The position numbers were made by a program, and so were the translations under genes. Shown one piece after another: positions 4,261-63,580 of a stretch of DNA of 64,000 nt. The notes below the pieces were generated by a model. That model saw nothing but the letters and a program-made list of their open reading frames with translations. It had not been told where the DNA came from and made no database searches. The stretch lies in assembly GCA_037379345.1 (NCBI GenBank), contig CM074516.1, positions 1,612,001 through 1,676,000 of the forward strand, written 5' to 3'. Within the stretch, counting starts at the first letter, position 1. Every line of letters begins with the position of its first letter. Origin of the DNA: Perna viridis (Eukaryota).

Positions 4261-6077
4261 TCAATCTTTTATGTAACTCATTAGAAGTTTTTCAATTGTT
4301 TCATTGTCTGCTGCATCTAAAGGTGTGAGACCCCCCTCCCACCCACCTCTCTGCCTGGGGTCTGCATTACTCTGTAGTAACAATCTGACAATATCAGTAT
4401 GACCCATCCAACATGCAGTTAACAGTGGAGTCCATCCAAACCTACCACCAGACTGTGACACATCAACATTTCTCTCTAGACACATTCTCACTATATTAAT
4501 ATTACCACACTCACATGCATAACACAAAGCATCTTGAATGTTTCCACCATTTGTTATTAACAGTTCTACAATATTTACATGACCATAATAACAACAATAC
4601 CACAAAGGTGAAAATCCATAATTACCTGTTTTGTTTACATTACATTTTATAGAAATGAGATATTTAACTAATTCATAAAAACCAATCTTTGAGGCTTCAA
4701 TCATTGGTGTACTAGTGTAAAAATAACTTCTGATAGGTCTATGTGTACTAGTGTAATCATCATCATTTTTATCTAGAAGACCTTTATCATCCAACTCAAG
4801 GAATAATTGTTTACATGAATCTGTGTGTTCCTTTATATATCCCATCACTTTGTCTTTATATCTTTCTTCTTTCAACTGTTGATTATGAAAGAAGGACGTT
4901 CCATCTTGTTCTTTGAGATCTCTGAATATTCTGTCAAAATAAACATTCTCAATATCATCAGATAAATACAGGAAGGAATCATCTTGTTCTAGATTTTGAC
5001 CTGACAAAAGTCTGAATCTTTCTGCTATGAATGATGAAGGTGAATATTCAATGAAAAGTTTCACAAGTTTTTGACCACAAGTTACAGCAACCATATCATA
5101 CAGTTTATCATGGGCTATACTGTAGACTGATCCTATTTTCTTTATATATGTTCCATCAAGTCTATTGAAGGTGTCAACAAGTTGTTTTCTTTCTAGTTCT
5201 ATTTTTAGATCTATTCTAAAATTAGCAACTATTTCTGTTACTTTCACTTTAACATCTTGTGGTGCTGTTCTAGGATTTATGTATGTTTCATCTAATTCAT
5301 TAGGAAACAATACACATAACACCAAGGCACAGAACTCAAAATGTTTATATTCTATCATGTCTTTGATATCCTTCTTTATACTTTCAACAGGAGATGTGAA
5401 AAGTTCAGTCAACTGATTTACTTGTTTATCTTCAGACATTTTACACAGCAATGGAAAAAAGGAACACTTGTCCATCACTTTATCCAATTTCTTCAAATTA
5501 TAATCTGATAGAGTTGTAAATTTGCTGATCATGTTATGTCTTTCTTTAGGCAGTAAGCTATAATCCTTGGATTGTAAGTCTACTGACTGTTTATTGAATA
5601 TCTCCAAAGACTTGAATTTGTTATCGTTTAATATATGCAATCGACAAGAAATTAGAATTTTCATTTGTCCATAAGTTTCTCCTTTTTTAACTGACTGTGC
5701 ATATTTTTGGTTTCTATTCTCAAAAAGAAATAATTGCTCAATTTTGTCAGCCTGTTCTTTCCATGTTTGTAAGTCTCGTTCATTAATAAAATTCTTCCCA
5801 CATAAATCATCTATGACAAAAACTTGATTCTTCTTTAAATCTCTGTATTGTAAAATGTCACCAGGAGAGGATACAAATGGGATAACATCATATTTCTCCT
5901 TTGATTGTAATTCTAATGCTACATGGTGTATGATGGATGATTTCCCTGATCCAGAACTACCAGTAACAAGAACCACACCATTTTCTTGAATCAATCTGGT
6001 TACTTCTTTTGTTGCCCTGGTAACAGTAAATGTTGATTCATCTTCTTGCCATCTTTCAATGTAACCCTGATATTTTT
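4261..6077 (-). CDS. Terminal exon: nSTAND3-type P-loop NTPase plus ~4-5 ankyrin repeats
   Basis: Walker A GSSGSGKS (5938-5961), Walker B VFVIDD, sensor KILISCR and IAHDKLYD. Ankyrin motifs TPMIEAS, SPLWYCC..GH, TPLLTACWMGH and TPLDAA. Acceptor ttattatag|AAAAATAT (phase 1); TGA stop at 4261-4263. Confidence 0.92.
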
Positions 6078-12000: not shown

Positions 12001-15000
12001 CTTTGTTTTTGGTGTGTTGAGGTTCTGTTTGTTTGGTTTTGTCTTGTTTTTGCTGTGTTTAGGTAATGTGTGTATAGTTTTGTCTTTTTCATGGTGTGTT
12101 GATGTTATATTTGTATGGTTTTGTCTTGGTGAGTTTAGGATATATTTGCATAGTTTTGTCTTGTTCTTGGTTTATTGATGTTGTGTTTGTATTGTATTGC
12201 ATGTTATTGGTGTGTTGATGTTATGTTTGTATGGTTTGGCTTGTTCTTGGTGTGTTTATGTTGTGTTTTATGGTTTTGTCTTGGTGTGTTGATGTTGTGT
12301 TTGTATGATTTTGTTTTGTCCTTGTTGGGTTCATGTTGTGTTTGAATGGTTTTGTCTTGTTTTTGGTGTATTGGCATTGTGTTTGTGTGTTTTAGACTTG
12401 TTCTTGGTGTGTTGATGTTATGTTAAAATGGTGTTTTTAAGATCGATATCTTAAACATATACAATAATTTTAAATGGTTCACAACTTAATATTCCTTTTA
12501 CCTTTCATATGGTTAGGAACACTGTCTTCTACTTTGTCTGAAAAAGAAATTTATACTGTATACACAGGACAGTAAAACAGTAATATCATACTCTAATATT
12601 GTAATAAACCAGGTCTACTGGAAGGGTAAGAAATCTATACTGTATACACATGATGTTACTACAATAATATCATACTTAAACAGTGTTATAAACAAGGAAT
12701 CTGGACCAGGTGTACTGGAAGGGTAATAAATATATACCATATACACATGACAGTACAACAATAGTATAATACTCTTACACTGTACCAAACAAGGAAACTG
12801 AATCAGGTGTACGGGAAGGGTAGGAAATCTATACTGTATACATAACAGTACAATATCATATCCTAACATTGTAACAAACAAGGAATCTGGACCAGGTGTA
12901 CTGGAAGGGTAGGAAATCTATACCATATACACATGACAGTACACAAATAATATCATACTCTATCATTGTAACAAACAAGGAATCTGGATCAGGTGCACCA
13001 GAAGGGTAGGAAATCTTTACTGTATACATGACAGTACAACAATACCATATCCTTACATTGTAACAAAGAAGGAATCTGGACCAGGTGTACTGGAAGGGTA
13101 AGAAATCTAACAACACATAAAACAAAATTCAACAGAATATGAATATGAATGGAGAGATGAACATGCTGAATGTTAAGGACCTTCAGGAAGCAAAAGTAGT
13201 TATAAATTTGGTAATATTTCATCATGTAATTGTGTAAAGTTCTTAGATAGTAAATAAAGTTTCTTACCCATTTCTTCTTTTATTTTGGCAATAGATCTTT
13301 TATTCTGCAGGATTTCCTGAAAACAGAATAAAATGTTTAAAATAATCTGTATGTCAGATCTAAACTATTAAATATATAAGAGAGTTGTAAAAACATGAGA
13401 CCTAAGTGACAGGAAATATGTCAAGTATTATCCCATGTGGTGAACATTTTTTTTTACAATAAATTAACAATGTTGTATTGTCTTTAGAAAGAAAGCAAAT
13501 CTGTTAAAACTAATGATCTATATTTCAATTCTGTGGAAAAAAACATTTCCTGCTATGCTTTAATGGTTCACCAGAAGAAAGCAATGCAGCTTGCCTCATA
13601 AATTCATTAAGTTAAATCATACCTTTGTTTTTGTTTTTTGTTTTTTTTGTTTTGTTTATAGATTTTCCTATTTTCTCTGATTCAAAATTCAAAACTCATA
13701 ATTCACTTACAAAATGTTCAGGTAATTCCGCCTTTAAATGTGGTAATATTTACAAGATTTTATGTATACTATATCGGTTATTTTCTGCATTTTGCAAAAA
13801 ACTAAAAAAAATACTTTACAGCGCACAGTCAATACATCCACAGAAGTCGAACATTAGACAGTTGGGGCAAATATGGACACAACATTCAAGTTCAATTTAG
13901 TTCAGAGTTTGGATTGTGTTTAAATGTTTGACACAGCAATTTAAGATGCCAATATAGACTGAAACTGTTAAAAAAATTTACATTTCAACTTAAATATTTC
14001 CTTAATTTGGTCATTTCCATAATTAAAAAATTAAACAAGAGCTTGCATGCTATGTCATGCTAAGAATACCTCCATTTAACCTGGTAAAGGAGACATGAAT
14101 CAATCAGTAAACAGGTTGTATATGAGTGAGGAACCTGGAAGACACAGTACAAGTTATCATACAAAAGCAATACAAGAAATTTCTAAGCTTTCCTAACAGG
14201 AGCTATGGAACCTGTTACAATAAAAGGCTTTGTTGAGCACAGCATGATATGACCACAGTGGTTGAACCCCAAAGAATTGGGGCAAGTGTGGACACAATTT
14301 AGGTTTTGACACACTTAAGCATGGGGACTTTCACTTCATTATGGACACCACAACAACTGGTTTGTATATATATTGTAGAAAATTTGAAATTCAAATAAAA
14401 ATTTTCAAAATCAGACCAAAAAATAAACTTCAATTTCTTGAAAAAGCAACCATATTTTTTCATGGATAAAAATTCCCAACAGACACTTTTTTGCAGAACA
14501 CCCTAAGGAATACTCATACAAACTTTCATCGAATTATGTACAGTAGTTTCTGATTTATTAAAACCAAAACACCAAAAATAGCAACAACAAAGAACATCCA
14601 AAAAAGGCAATAACTCCACCGTGGGTCAGCAGATTCTCACCACAATTTGACCTCAAAGATATCTAATCATGCCAAACACTTGTATCCCCAATGTCAGTAT
14701 TTTTGTCAATTAGGGCCTAAAGTGGCCCCCTATACCCCCAGCTGAATGTCAGATCACTGATTCTTCTTCTGGAGGGTAAAATTTGGCAGGTCTAGATTTT
14801 AATGAAAGACGAGGAAACCCCACATCACAGGGCAGGCTGCAGCTGGCCCTAAAACATCTAACAGTCGAACCTCGTTAAGTCAAAGTCGAAGGGACCATGC
14901 AAAATGTTCAAGTAATCCGAGGTTCGAGTAATCCAAGGTCGATGATAAACCGGAAATACTAGTAGTATACACATGTACGGTTAAAGAGTTACCCCTATAT

Positions 15001-18000
15001 ACTCAAGTGACATAAAAATAAACTAAAGGTGAAAATGAAATGAGACATGCAGAGGCCAGAAAATCCGGACTTGGGATAGCCACAAAAATCTGATAGGGTT
15101 AAAGTACTTTTACCTGATCACAACCCTCCCCTTAAAATCTGGCCATTATGGAAAAAAATATTACACAATTAAGTCCATTTTTAGGGGTGTGGTCACTTGG
15201 ACCCATTATAACTTCAAAACCATAAGAGATATCTGAAATCTGATTGAAAAATGAAGGGAAGATTTTCATAAGGAATCCAATACAAAAAATTTCAAAATTG
15301 GACCAAAAATGAAAAAAGTCAATTTTTTGTGTCTGGTCTCTTTGACCCCTTTCAACCCAAGAACATTAAGGAATCTGATAAAAAAAAATCAGGCAGGAAT
15401 TTTCATAAAGAATCCAATAAAAAATTATAAAGGTATAGCACTGTGGATTATTTCGAGGAGATCTCAAATTATTGTCAGGACATCAGGAAAAAGCTTGTTT
15501 CTGGTCCCTCCCTCACCTTAACAGGTTCAAGTCACGACCCCCAAAATTAATCATGGCCTTCCTTTGGCAGTGTGGCACCTTCTGGTGCAATTTCAAAGAG
15601 ATCCAATAAATTTTACTCTAGTAATGGTCTAAACTATAAAAAAATTGTTTAGTTTCTGGCGACTACAGCATGATACCATTATACTAAATCTTATGGTTGT
15701 AAAAAACTGAGTTCCAGTGTTCCCCACTTCGTGTTTTATACTGAGATTATTACATTGAAAGCATATTTCACCCTGAAAATTCATTATAAGTAAGCAAGAT
15801 TTTAGAGAGAAGTATCTTTTCAAACAAGACTCGTTGAATGCCTGATAGTATGCACATCTCCATCAGATTAAATTACATCCGACAAAAATTCATAACAATA
15901 CCGCATGCTGCTTAGAAAGTAGTTCAGACAGACGGACAGACTGACAGACTGGGTGAAACCTATATAGTATATACCACTAAACTTTTTTGCAGGGGGGCAA
16001 AAATATCTTTCAAACGAAACCATTTTTAACCTATTTTCTGTACACAAACAAACAAAACTGATCAAATCTCTGAAACCAGAATAATACCCATATAAAGCTA
16101 AACATAAATATGCTAGGTTCTCAGGCTCTGAGAAAAACCCTCCTGCATCTGCAATTTTTATTGCGATAAAATCCGGAATTTCATATACGTTCCAGAAATT
16201 CATATCTTTTAATAGACTTTTAATTAGTTAACAGATTAGTCTGCCCGCTTGACAGAAAGGTAAACAATTTGATGCGAATGAGGCTGTTATTTAACATTGA
16301 TCGTTAAAATGAAAGTATGTCTCGTGGCGATGGCTCTTATTTCTTGCAACATCTCATATTTTAGTAGTTTTAATGCCATGGAGCATTTTATTTAACTTCT
16401 CAACATCCTGTATGTTTACAGAATTGTTCAATTTGATGAAATGTCTTGAAAAAAAAAGAAAACTTGCTTCTAAGCCTCCCTCCCACATCAATTTTTTTTA
16501 AAAAGTAGCCTGAGAATCTAGGCATTTTTTTGTTTGGCCTAAGTTAGCTTGAACAAATATGGGAACAGCAGTGTTTTTCATTATTGGAGGCAAAATTTGC
16601 ATTGCATTTCACAATTTTTCTTGATATTTGTATTTGGACTTCTTTCTTTAATTTTATTTTCAATTAATGTATACATACTTGTTCTGTTTGCTGTAGTCTG
16701 AAAGAAAGATTCAACAGTTTCTGCTCTGCCCCATTTAACTCATCTTTCAGCTTCTGAATCTTTTCTGGAGTATCAACAACAATCCCTTCAGCATCTTTAA
16801 TCAAAGCTTTAACATCTGTAATTATTTCAGCCAAGACAACACTGGTTGTTCCATCTATGAACTTTTCACCTTAAGTAGAAAATGACACAAAGTGATGAAA
16901 AAATGGCAATGTTAAACAAGCTTAAAATCTAGGGAAACATTTAAGGGATTCCTCCATTCTAGGAAGTGTTCATTTTAATTTGTATACAAACATTGTGCTA
17001 AGATTGAAGATGTTGATTCTATACTTCTAGAGATACAGATTACACATAGTGGGTACCAAACCGTATCATGAACAACATGGTGAGCTAAAACGTTGATAAT
17101 TTGGGTGTGACATTATTTATTAAACCTAAACAATACAAACGATCTTAAATCTGATTGAAATATGCTGGAAATTTCAACATTAGAAACAAATATTTTCACA
17201 TTGATTTTTGGGGTGTGTCTCACTTGGAACTCCTTACAAATGGAAAAACTGTAAGAGATACATGTAGCTGACATCTCATTGAAATATGCAGGCAGAAATT
17301 TTAATGAGGACTTGAAGAAAAAAATAATCAAAAACTGATAAAAAATGAGAAAGTTGATTTATTTCCTCTTTTGGTCCCTTTTTTCAGAACGGTAGACCCA
17401 TTAAATATCAAAGTGCTGTCAGCACTGGAGGTTTTTGATTCTTGTGAAAATTGTACCATGAACGAAATTTTGAAGAATACATGATGTAAAAAAAAAATTG
17501 TCATCATACATTTGAATTTTTCATATTTATTATCAAGAATTGTTTTTCCCTAATTTGTATAAACTGAATGTCAATCCATACTTCTGATTCAATTTCACAC
17601 TTTTCCTAATTTTTTAAAACTGTCAAAAAGTTAATTTCCATTAACATTAAAAAACTATAGTAAAACATCATTTACTATAAAATGTCAGGGATTGAAATTT
17701 TGTTTGGGAAGACTCGAGCCCTGGACTTTTTCATCTTTTGTACACTAAGTCCGAACAATGTTTTGTCAAGTCCCAAGATATATAAATGAAATTTATTATC
17801 TGATATTCTTCAGTCAGGAATTCTGTATGAAAATAGAGATATTCTCCCAATCAAGCGACGAACATTTTGTTTAAAACTTCTAATACAAATGCGGAAAAAA
17901 GTCTTTGACAGCAAATTTTTCAAGATGGAAGACAGGAAGGTCATGGAGAAAGAGGAAATTTCACCATGTAATTGGTGCATAATCCCTGCAGAAAGCATGG

Positions 18001-21000: not shown

Positions 21001-24000
21001 GCCAAATAAACAGCAACAGAAACTGACAGAATGGCGTCTATGTGTTTATTTAAATTTACGAACAATCTAGAGGATATAGTAAGACCCGAGAAAGCCTAGT
21101 CGCATCATTGATGTGTTTTCATCTATGTTGATAACAAAAACGCTTTAAAGAACAGCGTCCCCTTCTTATGTATTTGGCTCCTCCATTTTATAGGAGCACC
21201 ACAGCATGGATTTTAACAACAACTACAAAAATAATTTCTACACGAAATCGGCAATAAAATTATTTGGGTCATGATGATTTTTTGGGTCGATCGGGATTGG
21301 GGAAACAAAAAATATTTTATTTTTGGCCAAATCCAATTTTATTTTCCATGTAGTAATTTGATACCTGAGTATCTAAATAATAACATGAAGTCATACTTGT
21401 TGTCTTGCTAGGCATAATCCCATTTGTACAGGTAGTTGATATCAGAGAGCAATCAAAATGGGATACAATGTATACCCCATCTATATAAAGCCAATCATTT
21501 AATCTGAAATCAATCCATCTATTGGGATCCAAGATTTTTTGTGACAAAACTTCTTTATCGTTCCACATATTGAAAAATGGCAAAGTCCTCCAAACAGAAA
21601 GTTGATATCCGACAGCACCAAAAATTTCTTTAAGATAAGATATGTTTATTGTACTATAAAGGCCTCCAGCCCACGGTACCAATTTACAATAAGTAATTAA
21701 TAATTTATGCCAACTACATCATTTGAACAACATTTAACACAACAAAAATATGCCCCATCTAAATGAAACCACACACCAAATTTGAAATGAATTTATCAAT
21801 TGGGAATGGAGATAAGTGTGATGAAATCTGGACATTTGGACAGAATTGTGGATGTTTTTTTTGCAGATTATTTTACCATTGCAATGCCATCTTTCAAGTT
21901 CTGCAATTGTATCATTTTCCTTCTCAATTGAGAGTCCTAGGTTCCAGACAAGCTCTTCCATAAGATCTAAGCTTTCTTTATATTTGGCCTTATCCCACTG
22001 AGTGAAGTCACAATGAGTCCAGGGGTTCCATATCTCTGAATGAACCTAAAATATATTGAGATAAAATCCATAAATGTTGACCCCAATGTAAATAATTTTT
22101 AAAGACAAATTTGTGAGGAAAGATTAATGGTAATCCATGTGCATAAAACTAATTTAGAAATCCAGTCATCAAAAACAAAGCCAAAGAGCAATAATCTTAC
22201 CTTGAAACCAGTCCAAGGTCAAATGCCCACATGCCGTTTACAACAAACTGTGTAACAACCTTAATATTTCAAAAGTCTTTCTTCTAAGATAAAAAGTAAC
22301 AGTTCAGACATAATCCAACATCTTTTGACCCAAAGTTTATCGTTCAAAGTAAAGTTTTAGCAACACTATAACTAGTATGTGACAATAGCCATATTTACAT
22401 ATTTTTTTTACAAATAATTTTTCCAACAGAGTTCAGAATTTCTTTATCCTCACAATTTAGATTCCAAAATAATTTATTATCATTAAAAAAGTTGCAAAAA
22501 TTTGGAACCCAGCAGTCCTTTTCACAAAAAATCTTAGGTGTAAAATTAGTTGTAAGTTATGACATCATAATAGATCAAAATATTGTGACATCATAACTTA
22601 CAACAGATTTTATACTTACGATTTTTTTGTGAAATTGACCACTCAGACTGGCCATAGTTTTTCTCTGTCATCTTATTTAACATACTAATACTGTGGAAGT
22701 ATTGTAGGCCAAATCACGAAATTCGGTTTCCAACAAAATGGAGAATCCCAAGGATGTGTATACTGAAACCTCAAAACCTGGAATTCAAAAATGCATGAAC
22801 TAGCGTTCTTCCCTTAACCACGAAAATTGGTATCCACAAATTAAAGTACTTTCACAAGAATATGTGGAACTCTTTTGTGCACCATTAGTGTACAAAATAC
22901 ATTTTTTTGTAAAAAAAGTAATACCGGTAGATATTTTGCCAAAAGGTGCACACAATGAGAAACCATGTTTGATAAGAAAATATGCCTTATCTTCCACATG
23001 ATAACCTGACCATTTTTAATAGATTCTCTATGAATCATGAGATTTATCTGTAATGCCTCATTATGGAAGAATCATGAATGGAGATTTATCTGTAATGCCT
23101 CATTATGGAAGAACCATGAATGGAGATTTTTCTGTATTGCCTCAATATAGAAGAATCATGAATGGAGATTTATCTGTAATGCCTCATCATGGAAGAACCA
23201 TGAATGGAGATTTATCTGTAATGCCTCATTATGGAAGAACCATGAATGGAGATTTATCTGTAATGCCTCATTATGGAAATCTCCTCAACTTTGTTATTTA
23301 TCTTTCATCATACTATTTTATTTTACTATTGTAAGATTTGGCCCCTTATTCCTCAATAAATACAACCCCCAAAATCAATCCCTGCCTTCCTTTGGGGCAT
23401 GGCACATTTGGTACAATTTCAAAGAGATCCTTTCACCTTCAGGAAATTGCTTGTTTTTGGCCCCTTATTTTTATCAGTACAACGTATGTCACACTACCTA
23501 AAATAAATGCCAGCAAACCATTGTCTGGTACTTCCTTCCTTGGCACTCAATGGTATAATCTCAAAGAGATTCATTCACTTGAAGATAAGTTATTATTTGG
23601 ACATGATGAATCATGAAAAAATTTGTTTGTGTGTTGGCCCTAATTCATAGACAGTTTAAGGCACAACCCCATAAAAATTAGAAAATAGTAGAATTTTTTA
23701 TTTTTTATTTTTATTTTTTGATAAAGGGAATAATTGTTACCTGGTTTTGATATTGTATGTAAGACAATTACATTTTTACATACCCTTTCTGCAAAATCTA
23801 TTGCACTTCCAGGACATATGCCAGCTTTGATAATGATGCAAAGCAAAGCTGATAAGTCACAGTTTTCATCTATTACTGAATGCAGTGCCATATTAGTCTG
23901 TAAAAAAAGTTTTGATAAGTCGGTTGAATCTTTAACTCGGTAGTCAAATTTAGCCTGCTGTTTTACTCCAAGACTTCTATTGTTATTGATGGCTTCATAA

Positions 24001-36000: not shown

Positions 36001-39000
36001 CTACTTCCTTTGGAAGTATTTATTGACATATATTATCATTTATTCAGTCAGGACATGGAACAAGTGTGTTGTTACTTGTGTGTAACAAAATACGTTAATT
36101 TATTTTAAATATATACTTATTTTGTTTGTTTGTTTACACATTCATTCTTCTTTTTGTATTTATTCATTCATTCATCATTTTGATTATCAATACATGTAAG
36201 TGAAGGTTTGATGTGTTCATACTTGAACAGAGGGGTTCATTATTTTTTTTTTTAATTGCAGACACTGTGAGCAATGTTAATTACTGATATTTTCACCTTG
36301 TTTTGGATTGCTGTTAGGCTTGATGAGCTGTAGCACAGATCCTAGGCCTCTGTTGTTACAGCTCCTCAAATCTATCAATCTCTTCAAGCTTACAGTATAT
36401 GGGCATACAGTCAAATGTACGGATGAATGATACATTAATTTTGCATTTTATTTGTGATAATAACACATCCTTTCTAGGTGTACATTGCATGTAAAATAAT
36501 ATGATATGATGTTCATGCCAATCAGTATGCACAAAAAATTTGAATGTACAACATAATCAGTTGAATTTTGAATTTCAGAATTGATAAAATATTATGATTT
36601 TTGATTAATCTCCCTCTTTACTAGAGGTTTTTGTACAAGCTATGGTTGTTCTATCCATAAGTAGTCACACACACAAGAAGGATACAAGTATATTAAATTA
36701 ATATGATATCTTCTTGAGTACATTTCTTGCTACTTATTTTCCTATGTTGTTGACTACATAACACATATTGATTAATTTCCAATTACTTGAGTACTCAGTT
36801 GCTCAACTCTTACAAGTTACAGCATATTTATGTACATGTTTTCTAAAAACAAATGAATTCATTCTCTTATTGAAATATTTGCCATCAATCTGAACTAATT
36901 TTTAGAAACTTCTACAAACAAAATGTCCTATCTTGAGTGTGTGAGTTTAAGAGAATCTGTTTTTCTTAATTTTTTTGGATACTTTTTGTTAAATTCACTG
37001 TCTTGTGTAAAAGGTTATCAAATTTCATTTGTAGTAATGAGTAGTTGTGTAGAAAAATTATCAATGAATGTAAGAGGCCTACAATCAAATATTAAGAAAA
37101 GAGTAGACATTTTTAATTGGGTAAAAAAAAATGCATCCATTATTTGTTTACAAGAAACCCATAGCACTGAGGTGGTAGAAAAGAAGTAGGAAGATGAGTG
37201 GGGTCATAAGTGCTATTTCAGTCATGGTGATAGTAAGGGTGCCGATGTATGTAATTTGTTCAAGCCAGGTCTTCAATATGACGTCCATAATTCAATCATT
37301 GATCAACATGGTAGATATATCATACTAGATATAACTACCTTTGAGCACAGATTTACTTTTGTATGTTTGTATGGTTATAATTTAGATAGACCTGACTTTT
37401 TTGATGAAGTTCTGTTTCATGCTGTTAAATTCAGCAATACAAGCTATATATTCCGTGGAGACTGGAATGTAATGCAGGACAGGTATGATGATACCTGTGA
37501 TGTACTGCATGACAGGAACCCAAAAGCTAGAGACAAGATAGAGGAAATAAAAAGCTCCTTAGGAATGCTAGACCCATAGAGAACATGTTATCCTGATGAA
37601 AAAAGGTTTACATGGCATCAGTCTAGTCCTTAAAAACAGAGCAGAATAGATTATTTTCTTGTTTCTGTGGATATTTTTTGTTTGCTAAAATCAGCAAAAA
37701 TTGAGGCTGGATACAGAATTGATCATTCTGCAATCACTTTTTCATTCACAGCATCCTTTTCCTGCTGAGAGATAAAGATTATTGTCATCTTATCAAGCAA
37801 TGCATCAGAGACTTGATTGATGAGTACTATGCTGGTGGTGACAAATCTGATCTATTACAAGTGGAGTAATCCTGTAGTGATCAATTATTCTTTGAAGTAT
37901 TAAAAATGAAGATCAGAAGTGAGACCATCAGTTATGGTATTAAAAATCAAAACAATTTAGTAGATTAGAGACAGAAATGGAGCAATTAGAAAAAGATGTA
38001 AACAAAAATTATTCAGAAAACTTATCATTGTCTTTGAATAAGAAAAAACTTGAGTTAGAAATTCAAAGACAAAATCTTGTTGAAGGCATTGTTCTCCGTT
38101 CTCATGCAAATTGGCATGAGAGTGGAGAGAGATGCACAGAATATTTTTGTAAGTTAGAAAAAAGGGCATCTATGAACAAAATTATGACTGAGACAATTAG
38201 TGATGATGGTATATGTGTGTCAGATCAAAAGAAAATATCTGAACTGACACAATTTTACCAAAAAATATTTAAATCTTCCCACAAACCCATAGAAAACTTA
38301 GATTTTTTTAAGCATGTCAATCAGATGAATGAAGAACAAAAAAATTCATGTGAAGGTAATCTGACATTTGATGAGTGTAGTAAAGTGTTGAGCAGGATGC
38401 AAAATGGAAAAAGTCCTGGCTCTGATGACCGAATTTCTCACATTTGTGGAAAATTTTCTCAGATATAAAATAGAGACTGGTATAAGGACCTATTAGTCTT
38501 TGTCAGCCCAGTATAGACTATCTCTATATTAGAGACTCGTATAAGGACCTATTAGTCTTTGTCAGCCCAGTAAACACAATCTCTATAATAGAAACTGGTA
38601 TAAGGACGTATTAGTCTTTGTCAGCCCAGTAAAGACTATCTCTATAATAGAGACTCGTATAAGGACCTATTAGTCTTTGTCAGCCCAGTAAAGACTATCT
38701 CTATATCAGAGACTGGTATAAGGAACTATTAGTCTTTGTCAACCCAGTAGAGACTATCTCTATATTTGTGTATTAATATAGTGTTTGTATGGTTTTATCT
38801 TTATATAACATAAAATCTGCCTAAATGGTTAAACACTAAATCTTCCTCATACCTTTCAAACGTTTCTGGACTCTATCTTTTTGTTCGTCTGAAAAAAGAA
38901 ATTGACAACATATTAATACTAGAAAAACAGGAACATCAAAAATAAAGAATAAGGGGACTTAAGATGGACCTGACTGCATAAGGAATATTCCTTTCCATCC

Positions 39001-42000
39001 TATAAAACAGATCTCAGTATGAAATACATTTTCAGCCTAACAACAATGTTAAGCAAACGTTTTTGCCATTTATGATTAGAATTAAGGGGGGGGGCTATTT
39101 GCAATTATAACCTTATGAACATTTGTGTCATGATAGGCTCATCCCCCCCCCCCCAAAAAGAAGTACTTACAAATATAAATTATATATCAAATGTTATGGC
39201 CAAGTTTACCCTTATAATACAGGGATTTTGTACCATGTTAAGACTTATTATGAATGAGATGTTTTAGTAGCAACACAGTGATTTTTGTTCTTATTATGGT
39301 ACAGTTTAACTTGTGAAAATAAAAGCTTTACCCAGTGCAGCATGATATGACTGCAAACAGTTAAACTCTATTCATTTCAGGCAGGTTCGGATACAATATC
39401 AGTTTTTGACACACTTAAACATGGAGCCTTACAAGTCATTTTGGACACAACAACTGATTTGGGTACAATGTTGCACAACATTTAGTAATTCAATTTAAGT
39501 ACAAATTTCTTTTTTCGGGTGCATTTATGGATCAATTTGTTCCTCATTATCTCAAAAACAGTAAATGATCGAGTACATTTGCTAAGCATACTTCTTATGG
39601 CTCTTATACTTAGGTGGGGACTTTCATAAGGAACAAGAGGCTCCCAGAAACTTGAATCTCTCTCCTGATTAAATTGTTGTCTTTCAAGGGCATTAACTCT
39701 AACAAAGAGTTGTCCAACAATTTGGATTCAGAAAACTTCGGTAGGACTAATCATAAAGATCATTTCAGCAATTACAAGATTTTTTCTATCTATTATAGTT
39801 TTCAAGATATTGGCTGAAAAGTGCTAAAACATCATTTTTCGCCTTTCACTGGCAATAATTCTAACAAGGATTTCTCTGACAGCTTTGATTCCACACAAAC
39901 TTTTGTAGGCCTAATATTATAAGGATCATTTAGGCAATTGAAAGAACTTTGCTAAACCTAACGGTACTAGAGATATCAGAAAAACTTCTGACTGCTACTT
40001 TTGTTCTATTTTTAGTAAGAGACCATGTTTTTCAACGGACCAATTTTCCCAACATCAGATCTCATCATGGTGAACACTTTCAGCCCCTCCCAGAATTTGG
40101 TTAAACCTAACAGTTTTGGAGATATATGCAAAAAACTGCTGTCTGACCCCTACGTTCTATTTTTAGTAACAGTGGCCATGTTTTTTTTTCACGATCAAAA
40201 ATCCAAATATTCATTTTATGCAGGATACCATAATAAACAAAAAACTAACTTTCATTGAAGTATGTATAGTAATTTCTGAGAAGATTTTTGTAAGTACATG
40301 TAATAACATCAAAAACAGCAAAAAAAGTACAAAAAGGGCATTAACTCCAATAACTTTAATGGATGCCAAATGATAGCAATAGCTCATATGGTCTACGGCC
40401 GGGTGGGCTAAAAACTGCTGTCTGACCCCTATGTTCTATTTTTAGTAACAGTGGCCCTGTTTGTTTACCGATCTCAAACCCAAACGGTCATTTTGTACAA
40501 GGATACCCTAAAAAAACAGTAATACATGTTCCAACTTTCATAGAATTTCTGAAGAGAAGATTTTTGAAAGTAATTTTTTTGCAGGATACCCCAAGGAACA
40601 TAAAATACCCAGTTTGGTTTCAATTGGTCAAGTAGTGTCAGAGGAGAAGATTTATTATAGAAATAACATTAAAAATAGCAAAAAATCACTGAAAAAAGGC
40701 AGTAACTCCAACATGTTTCAACAGATTAAAACCAAAATTTGACCGCAGGTAGATCTCATCATGCTGAACACTTTTACCTAGTCAGAATTTAGCTTGAAAA
40801 AATTTAAGATGGCTGACATAGTGGTCACATAAGTATCAGCTCTCAGACTTTTTGGCAATTTGGAAATGTTTAAAAACAGGAATGATATTAAAATTTATAT
40901 GAGGATGTGTATAATTTTTTTCTCTTTTATGTGATGCTTGTGGAATTGAAATATCAGTTGGAATAATAAAATCTGCACTAATTAATGATAAAATCTGGAT
41001 GGACAGTGAGTAAAAATCAGAACTAGATCTTATTTTGCAAGTGCCTACAGGAATATTTACTTTAAAAGTACTACAGCTATTGTTCACAAGACTTACTTTA
41101 AGATGCCTTCAGGAAGTAGTAGTAGAAATTCATCCAATAATGAAAAAGACAAATCTGGCAAGAGATCAGAAAAGAAAACTTTTCAGACCTTATTGGCAGT
41201 GTAAGGACAAAGAATCAGCTGACAAAAACCCTAAAGGAACTCATTAAGATATTTCTATGGACAGTAGTTCTGATCTGATAGTAGAATTCAGTAATTTTCA
41301 AAAGGACTTACAATCCATCAAGAATAGCCTGAAGGATGTAGTAAAAAAAACAGACCTTGAACAGTCCTTAGGCAAAATTGTAAAGAAAGGGGATTTAGAA
41401 ACAGTTGTTACCTCTATTGTCACCGAATTGATCAATCAAGCCAAAAATGATAGTGATGGAAAGTTAAGAGAAAAGACAAACAAACAAACAAAAGCTATTG
41501 AGGAACTTACCGCTGAAAATGAAAAGCTGAGAGAGGCAATTGCTGAACAAAATAAAACTATTAGGGAACTTAAAATGGAAGTTGCTAGTAACAAAACTGC
41601 AGTAACAGATGCACTTCAGATAGCTAACTACAATCAGCAATATTGCAGGAAATTTAATATCAAAGTGATGAACTTTCCAGAAAGTCCAACAGAAAACACC
41701 AAGGACTTGTTTATCAATGAGACTCAAAATCACAGTGAAATCTGAAGATATCCAAGCTATCCATAGAATACCTGGTCAAAACAAACAACACAGACCAATT
41801 CTTGTGAAACTCAGGAACTCTGAAGTAAAGTACAACATAATGAAAGAAAAAAAGAACCTCCCATTGGAAAAGACATTCAACTTAGCTGATGATGTTACAA
41901 AGCACAATATGGATTTGATTTCCAAACTTAGAGATGACAAAGATGTGGACAGTGCTTGGTACTTTAATTGTGCAGTTTATGCAATGATTAAGTCATCAGG

Positions 42001-45000
42001 AAAACAAATGAAATTTGATATCTGTGATGACATTCGTAAGAAATTAAATACATATTATGGGTAATTTGCTTACTAGTTTCCCTACTTCCTTTGGAAGTAT
42101 TTATTGACATATATTATCATTTATTCAGTCAGGACATGGAACAAGTGTGTTGTTACTTGTGTGTAACAAAATATGTTAATTTATTTTAAATATATACTTA
42201 TTTTGTTTGTTTGTTTACACATTCATTCTTCTTTTTGTATTTATTCATTCATTCATCATTTTGATTATCAATACATGTAAGTGAAGGTTTGATGTGTTCA
42301 TACTTGAACAGAGGGGTTCATTATTTTTTTTTTAATTGCAGAAACTGTGAGCAATGTTAATTACTGATATTTTCACCTTGTTTTGGATTGCTGTTAGGCT
42401 TGATGAGCTGTAGCACAGATCCTAGGCCTCTGTTGTTACAGCTCCTCAAATCTATCAATCTTTTCAAGCTTACATTATATGGGCATACAGTCAAATGTAT
42501 GGATGAATGATACATTAATTTTGCATTTTATTTGTGATAATAACACATCCTTTCTAGGTGTACATTGCATGTAAAATAATATGATATGATGTTCATGCCA
42601 ATCAGTATGCACAAAAAATTTGAATGTACAACATAATCAGTTGAATTTTGAATTTCAGAATTGATAAAATATTATGATTTTTGATTAATCTCCCTTTTTA
42701 CTAGAGGTTTTTGTACAAGCTATGGTTGTTCTATCCATAAGTAGTCACACACACAAGAAGGATACAAGTATATTAAATTAATATGATATCTTCTTGAGTA
42801 CATTTCTTGCTACTTATTTTCCTATGTTGTTGACTACATAACACATATTGATTAATTTCCAATTACTTGAGTACTCAGTTGCTCAACTCTTACAAGTTAC
42901 AGCATATTTATGTACATGTTTTCTAAAAACAAACGAATTCATTCTCTTATTGAAATATTTGCCATCAATCTGAACTAATTTTTAGAAACTTCTGCAAACA
43001 AAATGTCCTATCTTGAGTGTGTGAGTTTAAGAGAATCTGTTTTTCTTAATTTTTTTGGATACATTTTGTTAAATTCACTGTCTTGTGTAAAAGGTTATCA
43101 AATTTCATTTGTAGTAATGAGTAGTTGTGTAGAAAAATTATCAATGAATGTAAGAGGCCTACAATCAAATATTAAGAAAAGAGTAGACATTTTTAATTGG
43201 GTAAAAAAAAATGCATCCATTATTTGTTTACAAGAAACCCATAGCACTGAGGTGGTAGAAAAGAAGTGGGAAGATGAGTGGGGTCATAAGTGCTATTTCA
43301 GTCATGGTGATAGTAAGGGTGCCGATGTATGTAATTTGTTCAAGCCAGGTCTTCAATATGACGTCCATAATTCAATCATTGATCAACATGGTAGATATAT
43401 CATACTAGATATAACTACCTTTGAGCACAGATTTACTTTTGTATGTTTGTATGGTTATAATTTAGATAGACCTGACTTTTTCGATGAAGTTCTGTTTCAT
43501 GCTGTTAAATTCAGCAATACAAGCTATATATTCCGTGGAGACTGGAATGTAATGCAGGACAGGTATGATGATACCTGTGATGTACTGCATGACAGGAACC
43601 CAAAAGCTAGAGACAAGATAGAGGAAATAAAAAGCTCCTTAGGAATGCTAGACCCATGGAGAACATGTTATCCTGATGAAAAAAGGTTTACATGGCATCA
43701 ATCTAGTCCTTAAAAACAGAGCAGAATAGATTATTTTCTTGTTTCTGTGGATATTTTTTGTTTGCTAAAATCAGCAAAAATTGAGGCTGGATACAGAATT
43801 GATCATTCTGCAATCACTTTTTCATTCACAGCATCCTTTTCCTGCTGAGAGATAAAGATTATTGTCATCTTATCAAGCAATGCATCAGAGACTTGATTGA
43901 TGAGTACTATGCTGGTGGTGACAAATCTGATCTATTACAAGTGGAGTTATCCTGTAGTGATCAATTATTCTTTGAAGTATTAAAAATGAAGATCAGAAGT
44001 GAGACCATCAGTTATGGTATTAAAAATCAAAACAATTTAGTAGATTAGAGACAGAAATGGAGCAATTAGAAAAAGATGTAAACAAAAATTCTTCAGAAAA
44101 CTTATCATTGTCTTTGAATAAGAAAAAACTTGAGTTAGAAATTCAAAGACAAAATCTTGTTGAAGGCATCGTTCTCCGTTCTCATGCAAATTGGCATGAG
44201 AGTGGAGAGAGATGCACAGAATATTTTTGTAAGTTAGAAAAAAGGGCATTTATCAACAAAATTATGACTGAGACAATTAGTGATGATGGTATATGTGTGT
44301 CAGATCAAAAGAAAATATCTGAACTGACACAATTTTACCAAAAAATATTTAAATCTTCCCACAAACCCATAGAAAACTTAGATTTTTTTAAGCATGTCAA
44401 TCAGATGAATGAAGAACAAAAAAATTCATGTGAAGGTAATCTGACATTTGATGAGTGTAGTAAAGTGTTGAGCAGGATGCAAAATGGAAAAAGTCCTGGC
44501 TCTGACGACCGAATTTCTCACATTTGTGGAAAATTTTCTCAGATATAAAATAGAGACTGGTATAAGGACCTATTAGTCTTTGTCAGCCCAGTATAGACTA
44601 TCTCTATATTAGAGACTTGTATAAGGACCTATTAGTCTTTGACAGCCCAGTAAAGACTATCTCTATATCAGAGACTGGTATAAGGACCTATTAGTATTCT
44701 ATTGAAATATTACAAGCACAAATCGCAAACTTTAAAAGCCAAATCATTTAAAAATCAAGTACACCAACCAGCACATGATAAATGTACAAGTAATAATGTG
44801 CTAGTAAGTTATTTAGAAAATGAAAATGAAGTTTTAAGGGAACAGATGGATGAGTTGTTGAAAAGTAAACATGTTCAATTTTTTAAAGATGGAAAATATG
44901 TTGACTGTGTACGTGAGGTATATGCCACACTTTTATCCATGAACGTTGGAGTGAAGAATGTAGAAACAATTGTTAAAACGGTGTTAGATAAAATGGTTGG

Positions 45001-54000: not shown

Positions 54001-54834
54001 TCAAACAACTTGACAAACTAGAAGCCCTGTTTATCACAGAAGCCCCTGTCTCATTTGTTAGCAGTGATTATTTTTAAGTCAAATGTTGTCATGTAGAAAT
54101 GTACTTTACTCAAGTGCTTGAGGACATGTATTCAATCCAAGGAAAATTAAAAAGTTTAAAAGTAACAAGTGTGGGTTATTTCAGAGATAGATAGACAAAT
54201 TGGTGGCTCTAATTCAGAATACAAAGTCTAAGCAGGATGACATGCTATGCTGTAAGTTGTTTGTTCTGTGGGATAGGGCAATAAAAATTTGGCTCAGTAT
54301 GTCGATCAAATACGTCGAATACACGGCGAGGTGTGTGTTTGAATGACCAACGTACTTGTTTTGAAAAACATGCAATATCTGCAATTGGACATTTAACTGT
54401 AATAAATCAACCAGTCACTCTATGATAACAACCACCAAAACAGCACTAGGGTAAAATTAAAGCAGCATAGTACTATGATGCTATAATGCCGAGGAAAAAT
54501 ACTGCTCCATATAAGTGAACATGTAAAAGACATATTTTACCTTTTGAAGTTGATGATGAAAAGAACATTTCAACCTCTATTCTGTTTCTTGTGGTTGTCT
54601 CAAGGTCTGTGATTTCTGCAAACTGCCTAATAAAGTCTTCAGGTTTAACTTCAAACCCAATATCAAGGATATCCTTCTGAATTGTTGATGTAATTACCAC
54701 AATTGATCCTTCATAAACAAATTCTATTTTGTAGTCAGCAATCATTGAAATTCCTTTTAACTTTTTTATCATATCTTGTTTATTCCAGTTTCCGGGGTTT
54801 TTGAATTTCCAAGCAATATAACACTTTCCATTAC
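4261..54834 (-). CDS. Spliced gene model: GSI-motif domain - HEPN-like - coiled coil - nSTAND3 NTPase - ankyrin repeats (NLR/STAND-like receptor); 5' end not established
   Basis: Exons 54541-54834, [38853-38888, 32770-32805, 26681-26716], 23784-24199, 21877-22045, 16679-16869, 13268-13316, 12502-12537 and 4261-6077 all have canonical AG/GT ends and matching phases. They join into one stop-free frame of about 1000 aa or more. Confidence 0.8.
6940..8026. repeat. 26-bp satellite, block 1 (tgttgtcatagtcctcaatgtctata)n
   Basis: Clear 26-bp periodicity, with degenerate monomers extending left to ~6730. Confidence 0.95.
8027..8672. mobile_element. MITE, 646 bp, with 16-bp perfect TIRs and a 3-bp TSD (TAT)
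   Basis: gccagcactccacagt (8027-8042) and actgtggagtgctggc (8657-8672). Removing the element and one tat restores the satellite monomer gtctatatattgtcatag. Confidence 0.9.
8673..11910. repeat. 26-bp satellite, block 2, with higher-order structure and a variant monomer at the right end
   Basis: Same monomer as block 1. From ~11395 it shifts to tgttgtcttagtcccttgtgtctata. Confidence 0.95.
11960..12425. repeat. Degenerate GT-rich ~41-bp tandem repeat
   Basis: Recurrent tggttttgtcttgttcttggtgtgttgatgttgtgtttgta. Confidence 0.7.
12502..12537 (-). CDS. 36-nt microexon, phase 1-1: (D)KVEDSVPNHMK(E)
   Basis: atttctttttcag|ACAAAG...ATGAAAG|gtaaaa; joins in frame to the NTPase exon (E-KYQGYIERW). 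Confidence 0.8.
12545..13110. repeat. ~95-bp tandem repeat, ~6 copies
   Basis: ctggaagggta-like anchors at ~12618, 12715, 12811, 12901, 12998 and 13090. Confidence 0.85.
13268..13316 (-). CDS. 49-nt exon, phase 0-1: EILQNKRSIAKIKEEM
   Basis: ttctgttttcag|GAAATC...GAAATGG|gtaaga; its phases fit both neighbouring exons. Confidence 0.8.
16679..16869 (-). CDS. 191-nt exon, phase 1-0: helical/coiled-coil linker (G)EKFIDGTTSVVLAEIITDVKALIKDAEGIVVDTPEKIQKLKDELNGAEQKLLNLSFRLQQTEQ
   Basis: ttctacttaag|GTGAAAAG...GAACAA|gtatgt; 63 open codons with a heptad-like pattern. Confidence 0.85.
19000..19117. repeat. 62-bp tandem duplication
   Basis: ctctgcacactggtaacaaaatac.atg.gt..taagggcctccttgtc occurs at 19000 and 19062. 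Confidence 0.8.
19186..20814. repeat. 34-bp minisatellite (tttataattaacctatccaccaccattatcattg)n, ~48 copies
   Basis: Highly homogeneous head-to-tail monomers with no spacers. Confidence 0.97.
21877..22045 (-). CDS. 169-nt exon, phase 0-1: C-terminal half of the HEPN-like domain, VHSEIWNPWTHCDFTQWDKAKYKESLDLMEELVWNLGLSIEKENDTIAELERWHCN(G)
   Basis: atatattttag|GTTCAT...TGCAATG|gtaaaa. The NPWxH motif lies where the HEPN Rx4H motif is expected. Confidence 0.88.
23031..23278. repeat. 42-bp minisatellite, ~5.5 copies
   Basis: atgaatggagatttatctgtaatgcctcattatggaagaacc is repeated. Confidence 0.9.
23784..24199 (-). CDS. 416-nt exon, phase 1-0: N-terminal part of the HEPN-like domain (KRWLLVGIGLHTVIIPALRKYV...CDLSALL...FAER)
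   Basis: tctttttacag|GTGATC...GAAAGG|gtatgt, lying inside ORF 23640-24227. Joins in frame to exon 21877-22045. Confidence 0.9.
24277..25162 (-). mobile_element. Apparently complete non-autonomous Helentron/DINE-like element
   Basis: The minus strand starts ttttagctcacctagccaaaggccatgtgagcta and ends aggtgagcgattcaggctactgggagcctcttgtt (subterminal inverted repeat plus 3' hairpin, T-rich flanks). It has internal tandem cores ~315 bp apart. Confidence 0.7.
26299..26593. repeat. 59-bp minisatellite, 5 copies (also 32388-32682, 38471-38765 and a partial array at 44551-44695)
   Basis: tagagactggtataaggacctattagtctttgtcagcccagtatagactatctctatat is repeated. Confidence 0.93.
26681..26716 (-). CDS. 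36-nt microexon, phase 1-1: (D)EQKDRVQKRLK, in repeat unit 1
   Basis: atttcttttttcag|ACGAACAAAAAGATAGAGTCCAGAAACGTTTGAAAG|gtatga. Open in phase 1, and its flanks resemble those of microexon 12502-12537. Confidence 0.7.
27467..28631 (-). mobile_element. Helentron/DINE-like element, part left of the LINE insertion (repeated at 33551-34714 and 39632-40795)
   Basis: Begins aacaagaggctcccag like the element at 24277, shares its internal cores, and is interrupted at gtcagaatttagctt. Confidence 0.7.
28632..32345 (+). mobile_element. L1/Tx1-clade LINE 5' half, copy 1 (decayed ORF1 ~28939-29900; ORF2 endonuclease region from ~30954)
   Basis: ORF1 has a coiled coil, QYCRKFNIKVMNFPE and IHRIPG..RPILVKL. 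ORF2 has APE motifs SMNVRGL, CLQETH, YFSHG and GDWN and runs to KSPGSD. Contains stops and frameshifts. Confidence 0.9.
32770..32805 (-). CDS. 36-nt microexon (D)EQKDRVQKRLK, in repeat unit 2
   Basis: Sequence and splice sites identical to 26681-26716. Confidence 0.62.
34715..38428 (+). mobile_element. L1/Tx1-clade LINE 5' half, copy 2
   Basis: Same ORF1 and endonuclease fragments (35176-35983, 36923-38468 in the ORF track). Confidence 0.9.
38431..44510. repeat. ~6.08-kb segmental tandem repeat, copy 3 (6080 bp)
   Basis: Near-identical to copies 1 and 2. It retains TGG at 43267 and 43657 where copies 1 and 2 have TAG. Confidence 0.97.
38853..38888 (-). CDS. 36-nt microexon (D)EQKDRVQKRLK, in repeat unit 3
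   Basis: Sequence and splice sites identical to 26681-26716. Confidence 0.62.
44702..47409 (+). pseudogene. hAT-like DDE transposase pseudogene (one frameshift at ~45349, one stop at 47155)
   Basis: LHTDGT (first Asp), KNLMT[D]RH (second Asp, lost at the frameshift), CNLH (CxxH), TGPLWR and TTNIISERDFANLD (Glu; hAT ER.F pattern). A C-terminal VAVAY..*YPG..FKWP..D module continues in frame past the TAG. Confidence 0.8.
48595..48786. promoter_or_regulatory. Two palindromic pairs of YY1-like GCCATNTT motifs inside the transposon
   Basis: gcagccatttt-tattc-aaaatggctgc (48595-48621) and tggcggccatcttga-t-tcaaaatggccgcca (48756-48786). Confidence 0.4.
49613..51938 (+). pseudogene. LINE ORF2 reverse transcriptase and C-terminal region (fragmented)
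   Basis: ORF fragments 49640-50047, 49953-50219, 50364-50885, 50904-51188 and 51463-51654 carry the RT and zinc-knuckle motifs in the expected order. Confidence 0.9.
52231..52832 (-). mobile_element. Helentron/DINE-like element, part right of the LINE insertion
   Basis: Resumes tttagcttaacctcacggatttgagatatatgc; the uninterrupted sister core at ~52550 reads gaatttagctaaaccgaacggattggagatatatgc. Ends tagctcacttggcctttggccagatgagctaaaa. Confidence 0.75.
52900..53310 (-). mobile_element. Second Helentron/DINE-like family fragment
   Basis: Internal tandem units (tcaatagatatgaacaat..caaagtttcataaaag), a gacagacggacagaca microsatellite and a terminal hairpin cctgtcttagacggg followed by tataaaaa. 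Confidence 0.5.
54541..54834 (-). CDS. 294-nt exon, phase 1-1: alpha/beta domain with GSI motif (NGKCYIAWKFKNPGNWNKQDMIKKLKGISMIADYKIEFVYEGSIVVITST...SSSTSK)
   Basis: atatattttgcag|GTAATGG...TCAAAAG|gtaaaa. 98 codons, open, and phase-compatible with the downstream exons. Confidence 0.8.
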
Positions 54835-61065: not shown

Positions 61066-61158
61066 CTTGTTCATCACTATTCATTCTGTCAACTACATTA
61101 AACCGTGTTGTATTATCTGTCGTCACTCGTTTTTCTTTTATTTGGAAGCAGAGATTAT
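61066..61158 (-). CDS. Candidate 93-nt exon, phase 1-1: (D)NLCFQIKEKRVTTDNTTRFNVVDRMNSDEQ
   Basis: ttgtttcattgtag|ATAATC...GAACAAG|gtatag; open in phase 1. Confidence 0.45.
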
Positions 61159-63555: not shown

Positions 63556-63580
63556 CTACTTTGATTTCCAATTGACGAAT
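63556..63580 (-). CDS. Candidate microexon (25 nt with gttagt donor, or 21 nt with gtaggt donor)
   Basis: Strong acceptor tttattttttattttcag|ATTCGTC. Either donor can give a phase-1 end; it may be 5' UTR rather than coding. Confidence 0.35.

Follow-up and report, generated by a model that had tools for sequence, protein, structure and literature searches.

The analysed window is a 64,000-nucleotide stretch of AT-rich animal DNA from Perna viridis (G000:C6:1612001-1676000 of a 723-Mb assembly). Its minus strand contains seven exons (A, B, C, D, D2, E and F) with AG/GT ends and matching phases, which combine into a chain of 990 codons whose only stop is the terminal one. An eighth distinct exon is a 36-nt phase 1-1 mini-exon that is present in three identical copies. 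An earlier note, made from the sequence alone, had assembled scattered reading frames into one stop-free multi-exon gene. The gene is indeed real and spliced, and RNA-type contigs show its B-C splice.

Exon organization of the gene

Exon A (54541..54834, phase 1-1, symmetric) encodes a TRADD-N-like domain. It is followed by the three copies of the linker mini-exon at 38853..38888 (phase 1-1, with a weak match to a paralog mini-exon, E 0.02), 32770..32805 (phase 1-1) and 26681..26716 (phase 1-1). Exons B (23784..24199, phase 1-0) and C (21877..22045, phase 0-1) form the N-terminal part and the motif part, respectively, of a second, probable HEPN domain of the CXorf38/Swt1-like type. A predicted coiled coil is encoded by exon D (16679..16869, phase 1-0), which has 52-69% identical exons in three paralogs, and is completed by the 49-nt exon D2 (13268..13316, phase 0-1), which restores phase 1 and has a weak counterpart at the corresponding position of the C14 paralog (E 0.03). 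The 36-nt linker exon E (12502..12537, phase 1-1), with matching mini-exons in the C14, C6 and C7 paralogs, lies ahead of exon F (4261..6077, phase 1-stop), which contains the nSTAND3 NTPase, a helical/winged-helix region, four ankyrin repeats and the stop codon.

The gene probably reaches past position 54834, which had previously been taken as its limit, to two more minus-strand candidate exons inside the window and a 657-nt minus-strand exon, H1, outside it. The 93-nt candidate linker exon (61066..61158, phase 1-1) has a counterpart at the equivalent place in the C14 paralog, with a similarity judged by eye. The 25-nt candidate (63556..63580, phase 0-1) is of low confidence; no other 0-1 candidate between H1 and A survives the filtering, and no paralog match to it was found. 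H1 (G000:C6:1679204-1679860; L060:3204-3860) is located 3.2 kb past the window end, starts with ATG and ends in phase 0. With both small candidates included, the whole chain from H1 to F starts with M and comprises 1248-1284 amino acids with no internal stop, whether zero, one, two or three mini-exons are used. The likely protein order is HEPN - TRADD-N - pseudo-HEPN - coiled coil - nSTAND3 - ankyrin, in what is likely a young exon-shuffled chimera.

The nSTAND3-ankyrin exon and the size of the family

The nSTAND3 profile PF20720 matches exon F with 74.7 bits against a Pfam cut-off of 27.2 (E 8.6e-21), and Ank PF00023 matches four stretches of the exon above the Pfam cut-off. Among the Pfam matches that the earlier note had anticipated, those to nSTAND3 and ankyrin are thus present, and a HEPN match was not found on exon B or exon C. 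The two Walker motifs from which a P-loop NTPase had been proposed, GSSGSGKS (A) and VFVIDD (B), are both intact in exon F. Walker A, Walker B and the sensor arginine fall at residues 39, 85 and 141 of the exon, and all are intact.

Over its full length, exon F shares 81-82% identity with two C6 paralogs. In the NTPase core (window 5500-6066), identity is higher with C14 and C15 genes (80-83%) than with the C6 paralogs (76%), and gene conversion is a possible source of this difference between core and whole exon. The four ankyrin repeats are fewer than in most database homologs. A private truncation of the ankyrin tail was considered and rejected because the exons of the C6 paralogs are equally short and their sequence matches continue beyond the stop.

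The genome contains at least 52 matches to exon B and at least 118 to the NTPase, which are lower bounds and not copy numbers. The earlier view of a spliced effector-STAND-repeat gene from a family expanded in invertebrates was right. Twenty-three of the 52 exon-B matches are followed on their own strand by an NTPase match less than 30 kb away, taking up 66 of the 118 NTPase matches. Eleven of the 52 are grouped at G000:C6 0.79-4.5 Mb, near the contig start. nSTAND3 and ankyrins are found in six of ten database homologs of exon B, and the combination of HEPN_DZIP3, nSTAND3 and ankyrin (PF18738+PF20720+ankyrin) is already annotated on six of 33 database homologs of exon F. The named protein homologs are mostly from mussel and clam.

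The TRADD-N-like exon A

The exon-A model (pLDDT 82.9) adopts a beta-alpha-beta-beta-alpha-beta arrangement, in which a four-stranded sheet (strands 3-11, 34-40, 45-51 and 86-92, with helices between) presents a GS motif in the beta2-beta3 turn. The G42 and S43 residues are kept in at least 90% of 54 exon-A-type sequences. TRADD-N is described as an RRM/ACT-like two-layer fold with a uS motif, usually GS, in the beta2-beta3 turn (PMC8195603). By its predicted fold and GS motif, exon A quite likely belongs to TRADD-N. The fold matches of the model are generic ferredoxin/ACT-like domains (Z 5-6.5), a common arrangement, and no TRADD chain appears in the top 50 rows of structure matches. Pfam lends TRADD-N no backing, as PF20694 matches one of the 54 family members at E 0.11. 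Exon A alone as a query gave no homologs, and none in the Atlas either; a profile of eight exon-A sequences retrieved 86 relatives, and the 31 longer relatives include four with HEPN_DZIP3 matches and several with B-box matches. The extra N-terminal module that had been named for a GSI motif is TRADD-N-like by fold and GS motif, and the intact HEPN exon H1 upstream of it had been missed.

The inner HEPN-like domain

The domain encoded by exons B and C is probably, though not certainly, a CXorf38/Swt1-like HEPN, an assignment from several lines of sequence and model evidence that are each weak alone. Its Atlas neighbours, at 0.95-0.97, carry PF18738 (HEPN_DZIP3) or PF15112 (DUF4559) on 11-38% of their members. 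The B-C profile matches the DZIP3-type HEPN with a probability of only 8.6% (E 0.004) and with the motifs aligned, and HEPN_Swt1 matches the motif region of homolog P0006 at E 0.008. The R-N-x3-H pattern occurs in nine of nine database homologs (P0009 left out), where it aligns with the DZIP3 motif. Structure modelling of this domain used the clam homolog P0003 in place of this gene; the model's match to the C-terminal domain of Swt1 (Z 6.0, rmsd 4.1, 126 residues) ties with bromodomains and other unrelated helical bundles. Neither the P0003 HEPN model nor the exon-A model had a Foldseek match at E 0.001, and nothing meaningful came from searching PDB sequences with the B-type alignment.

At the Rx4H position in exon C of this gene, W replaces the catalytic R and the H is retained. 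Among the 30 exon-C matches examined, of 35 found, R..H is kept in 19; nine carry Q, one a stop and this gene W. Because W stands where 19 of the 30 keep the catalytic arginine, the inner HEPN is probably a pseudo-nuclease. The HEPN-like domain of the earlier note is thus a probable HEPN but probably no active RNase. Two other readings of B-C, as a domain still catalytic without the arginine or as another helical bundle and no HEPN, draw on the retained histidine, on a HEPN family with H and without R in Table 1 of PMC3710099 and on the fold matches shared with unrelated bundles. Both are very unlikely in view of the aligned R-N-x3-H pattern, the Atlas neighbours and the HEPN_Swt1 match on P0006. 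A single CpG-type change separates the W codon from the CGG found in the paralogs, so its origin requires no special history.

Exon B is under purifying selection on its own branch (dN 0.084, dS 0.55 by simple counting), and exon C is apparently relaxed (dN 0.22, dS 0.21 over 53 codons by simple counting). Private changes account for seven of 22 in exon C versus eight of 83 in exon B (Fisher p 0.015), and the comparison of the own exon C with exon C of the two closest paralogs yields p 0.09. A conserved Y and a conserved F of exon B are also replaced. These replacements and the near-equal dN and dS of exon C, together with stops in many family matches and low expression, would suit a young, near-neutral chimera in a birth-and-death cluster that is becoming a pseudogene and has no specific job. 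That outcome is unlikely, since 1248 codons run without a stop or frameshift and the branch dN/dS is about 0.15 for exon B, 0.29 for exon D and 0.31 for exon F, although part of the branch may predate the fusion.

The upstream HEPN exon H1 and the paralogous loci

H1, found by comparing the flanks with those of paralogs, contains two Cys-rich inserts and an intact Rx4H motif. It matches the DZIP3-type (PF18738) HEPN in hhalign with a probability of 98% (E 1.9e-13; controls <3%), and as a single sequence it matches Pfam PF18738 at E 0.068, below the cut-off. R-N-x3-H is present in H1, and the pattern occurs in 26 of 28 H1-type rows, in one of them off-position. All nine exon-A matches in the genome have an H1 match at most 13 kb upstream on the same strand, which is the reason for linking H1 to A. 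H1 likely belongs to the same gene as exons A-F and is likely its putative working enzyme.

In the three closest paralogs, a 30-codon ATG first exon takes the place of H1 and A. In the exon-B tree (20 of the 52 genome matches and six database rows), the own exon nests with those paralogs with support of 98/97 and 94/94, and C7:41.15 lies outside. The H1 + A cassette is probably a recent addition, because the first exon of the closest paralogs is not matched in 144 kb around this locus and exon B nests among them. The C14:1.44-1.48 Mb paralog reads H1-A-mini-HEPN-nSTAND3-ankyrin with both HEPN motifs intact. The C7:41.14 Mb locus reads H1-TRADD-N-like-B-C, with the TRADD-N-like exon at some distance. 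Its second motif has neither R nor H, so that the combination of an intact and a degenerate HEPN recurs at this separate locus.

The Q residues at the catalytic arginine position belong to nine near-identical exon-C copies on C13, which are probably segmental duplicates. The copies are located at 15.1, 22.07-22.36 and 23.9 Mb (L047, L051-L054, L056-L059). In two C13 stretches with Q copies, neither an upstream HEPN nor a downstream NTPase exon was found. A rule that arginine loss needs an upstream HEPN was accordingly dropped; the loss is not specific to two-HEPN genes, because it also affects these nine copies, for which the two stretches examined revealed no HEPN upstream.

This distribution bears on the idea that the dead HEPN is a selected regulator, which would either pair with the intact HEPN of the same chain, the resulting half-site dimer holding the RNase inactive, or act as a decoy for pathogen RNase inhibitors, with NTPase activation swapping the partners. 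The arginine has gone at two of two loci where H1 precedes a B-type HEPN, through distinct changes that fall on separate branches, and exon B is constrained where exon C is not. However, n is 2, the C14 two-HEPN paralog retains both motifs, the C13 copies lost theirs although two stretches examined showed no HEPN upstream, the contrast of exon C with its paralogs is only p 0.09, and the two HEPN types are very divergent (profile probability 1%). Simple redundancy accounts for the same pattern, and a selected regulator is improbable.

Introns, transcript evidence and extent of the transcription unit

The introns are rich in repeats. Three tandem 6.08-kb units occupy window positions 26249..44695 and differ by 25-58 mismatches per pair, a triplication that is either a real duplication or an assembly effect. 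Within each unit lie a single copy of the mini-exon and a retrotransposon 5' half of the non-LTR type. Because the mini-exons are identical, in frame and flanked by intact splice sites, zero to three copies could be spliced in. The 5' half of the retrotransposon (ORF1-like and endonuclease regions, + strand) lies at 29084-32337 and is present three times, and the reverse-transcriptase half lies at about 49515-51800 on the + strand; the element is broken by stops and frameshifts and shows an 82-nt direct duplication (44427-44508 / 49531-49612). Between the two halves, at 44684-47157 on the + strand, are two long ORFs of 225 and 615 amino acids with no good Pfam match, which are presumably transposase-like, judging by their motifs. 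This segment has three dispersed copies of 93-97% identity, and the C7:27.06 Mb paralog lies about 35 kb away from one of them. Intronic satellites with periods of 26, 34 and 42 nt are located at 6933-11910, 19186-20814 and 23039-23278.

The read evidence covers window positions 20850-26290 and uses four of four runs; that X1 and X2 are RNA is a guess. Each of these two putative-RNA runs has one contig in which exon B passes straight into exon C (23784 to 22045), a junction that the earlier note had predicted. The X1 contig (1726 nt) carries the two exons at record positions 741-1160 and 1161-1331 and has 742 nt 5' of B; the X2 contig (883 nt) carries them at 358-777 and 778-883 and has 359 nt 5' of B. 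Both contigs show one or two differences per exon from the genome exons. Raw stranded reads (X21 and X22) cover exon B at low depth (up to 9.75) in an orientation that fits minus-strand RNA. At 21942-22123, the bin with most of exon C, raw-read depth is zero in two RNA runs, although B is well covered in one of the two. Skipping exons C and D (360 nt) would preserve the frame and remove the dead motif. The W codon is a genomic and not a direct RNA reading, since 40 of the 633 read-versus-genome differences were listed. A dispersed repeat at 24277-25162 shows very high RNA read depth that comes from other loci.

The remaining junctions (21877/16869, 12502/6077 and A-to-B) are predicted from phase and from paralogs with the same exon order. 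From the paralogs, a single transcript running from H1 to F is likely. The alternative is a split into two transcription units: one made of H1 and A, whose NTPase exon was lost or never existed, and one running from B to F with another first exon, the product of the latter serving as a nuclease-dead sensor that works in trans with intact paralogs. Such a division could be read from the 30-kb A-B intron, which contains retrotransposon and transposon sequence, and from the H1-A paralogs on C13, which have no downstream nSTAND3 exon in the stretches examined. It is nevertheless unlikely: no match to the short ATG first exon of the paralog type was found in 144 kb around the locus, the linker mini-exon follows A here as it does in the C14 paralog, the phases join without a stop, and the contig letters directly 5' of B in X1 and X2 are compatible, if weakly, with an exon ending in AG, like A and the mini-exon.

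Predicted function

The best explanation, with a probability of roughly 0.5, is that the locus encodes one NLR-like cytosolic immune receptor with the predicted order intact HEPN - TRADD-N-like - pseudo-HEPN - coiled coil - nSTAND3 - four ankyrins, in which RNA would be cut by the upstream HEPN only. Comparison with the paralogs suggests that the H1 + A cassette was shuffled in via phase-1 introns, replacing a short first exon of the paralog type, and that the older HEPN subsequently lost its catalytic arginine. By analogy with STAND and HEPN biology, the repeats would keep the NTPase closed. Ligand binding would lead to nucleotide exchange and oligomerisation, a step modelled on STAND biology only, and the oligomer would bring the upstream HEPNs together into a putative two-subunit RNase site. 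The assembled RNase could then cause translation shutdown or cell death, and the TRADD-N serine may recruit a signalling partner. The second HEPN may still serve as a folded spacer or as a surface for dimerisation; the simplest view is a redundant, still-folded spacer. A bolder and improbable scheme is that bivalve STAND receptors repeatedly gained an active HEPN + TRADD-N cassette, that the old HEPN became a selected pseudo-nuclease pairing intrachain as an off-switch or decoy, and that the triplicated linker exon lets splicing tune the spacing.

In the literature covered, no member of the bivalve family has a tested function, so that any of them could be chosen for the first assay of an animal RNase gated by nSTAND3. 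The chief use of this copy is as a clean snapshot of exon shuffling, as it is nested among paralogs and combines a swapped first exon with the decay of a redundant catalytic motif. If the dead HEPN were a regulator, the gene would show how a toxic effector is held off.

Comparison with known systems

The closest described proteins are encoded at two oyster loci, where Kaur et al. 2021 (PMC8195603) report TRADDN-NCOA6+HEPN+nSTAND3+Ankyrin (for example Crassostrea virginica XP_022306070.1 and XP_022308753.1); the alignment list of that paper describes nSTAND3 as the STAND domain that accompanies bivalve TRADD-Ns. The predicted domains of the Perna gene follow the same four-domain order. In the published description, the oyster proteins begin with transmembrane and cysteine-rich regions, whereas the Perna gene apparently begins with a second HEPN, lacks the arginine in its inner HEPN and contains only four ankyrins. 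The coral Orbicella protein XP_020616738.1 is given in the same paper as HEPN + coiled coil + TRADD-N + HEPN + coiled coil. It shares two HEPNs around TRADD-N with the predicted Perna protein, but its entry lists no NTPase or ankyrin. In the literature listings covered, which include few subscription papers, no intact-plus-dead HEPN pair in molluscs was found.

HEPNs of the CXorf38 and DZIP3 types are fused to NACHT and ankyrin and expanded in oyster (PMC3710099), and further HEPN-NACHT expansions are reported in PMC9646362 and PMC8260672, the former with Rx4-6H kept in 194 of 202 pearl-oyster HEPN proteins. DZIP3/hRUL138-like (PF18738) and CXorf38/Swt1-like (PF15112, PF18731) HEPN-STAND/NACHT fusions share with the Perna gene an N-terminal HEPN on a STAND NTPase and a lineage-specific expansion; the NTPase here is nSTAND3 and not NACHT, and the inner HEPN is without Rx4-6H.

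In bacteria, nSTAND3 is the NTPase of Avs5 (AVAST type 5), for which a closed state with the repeats folded on the ATPase is predicted (PMC12931631; PMC13581612 and PMC13449251 provide general context only). Avs5 and the Perna gene share the effector - nSTAND3 - repeat layout. As described there, Avs5 differs in being a single prokaryotic gene with a Sir2 effector, a TPR/Sel1/PPR sensor and a tested antiphage role. A PADLOC 2023 search gave no Avs model at E 0.01, and the best PADLOC match of the NTPase is the candidate system PDC-S73 (E 2.8e-8). Because no Avs model of that set matched, the earlier description of the gene as an animal counterpart of prokaryotic antiviral STAND effectors is best taken as an analogy of layout and not membership. 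The architecture itself is already in print for bivalves, so the gene adds little as an architecture discovery; it is another member of a described, heavily shuffled family, with a modest twist.
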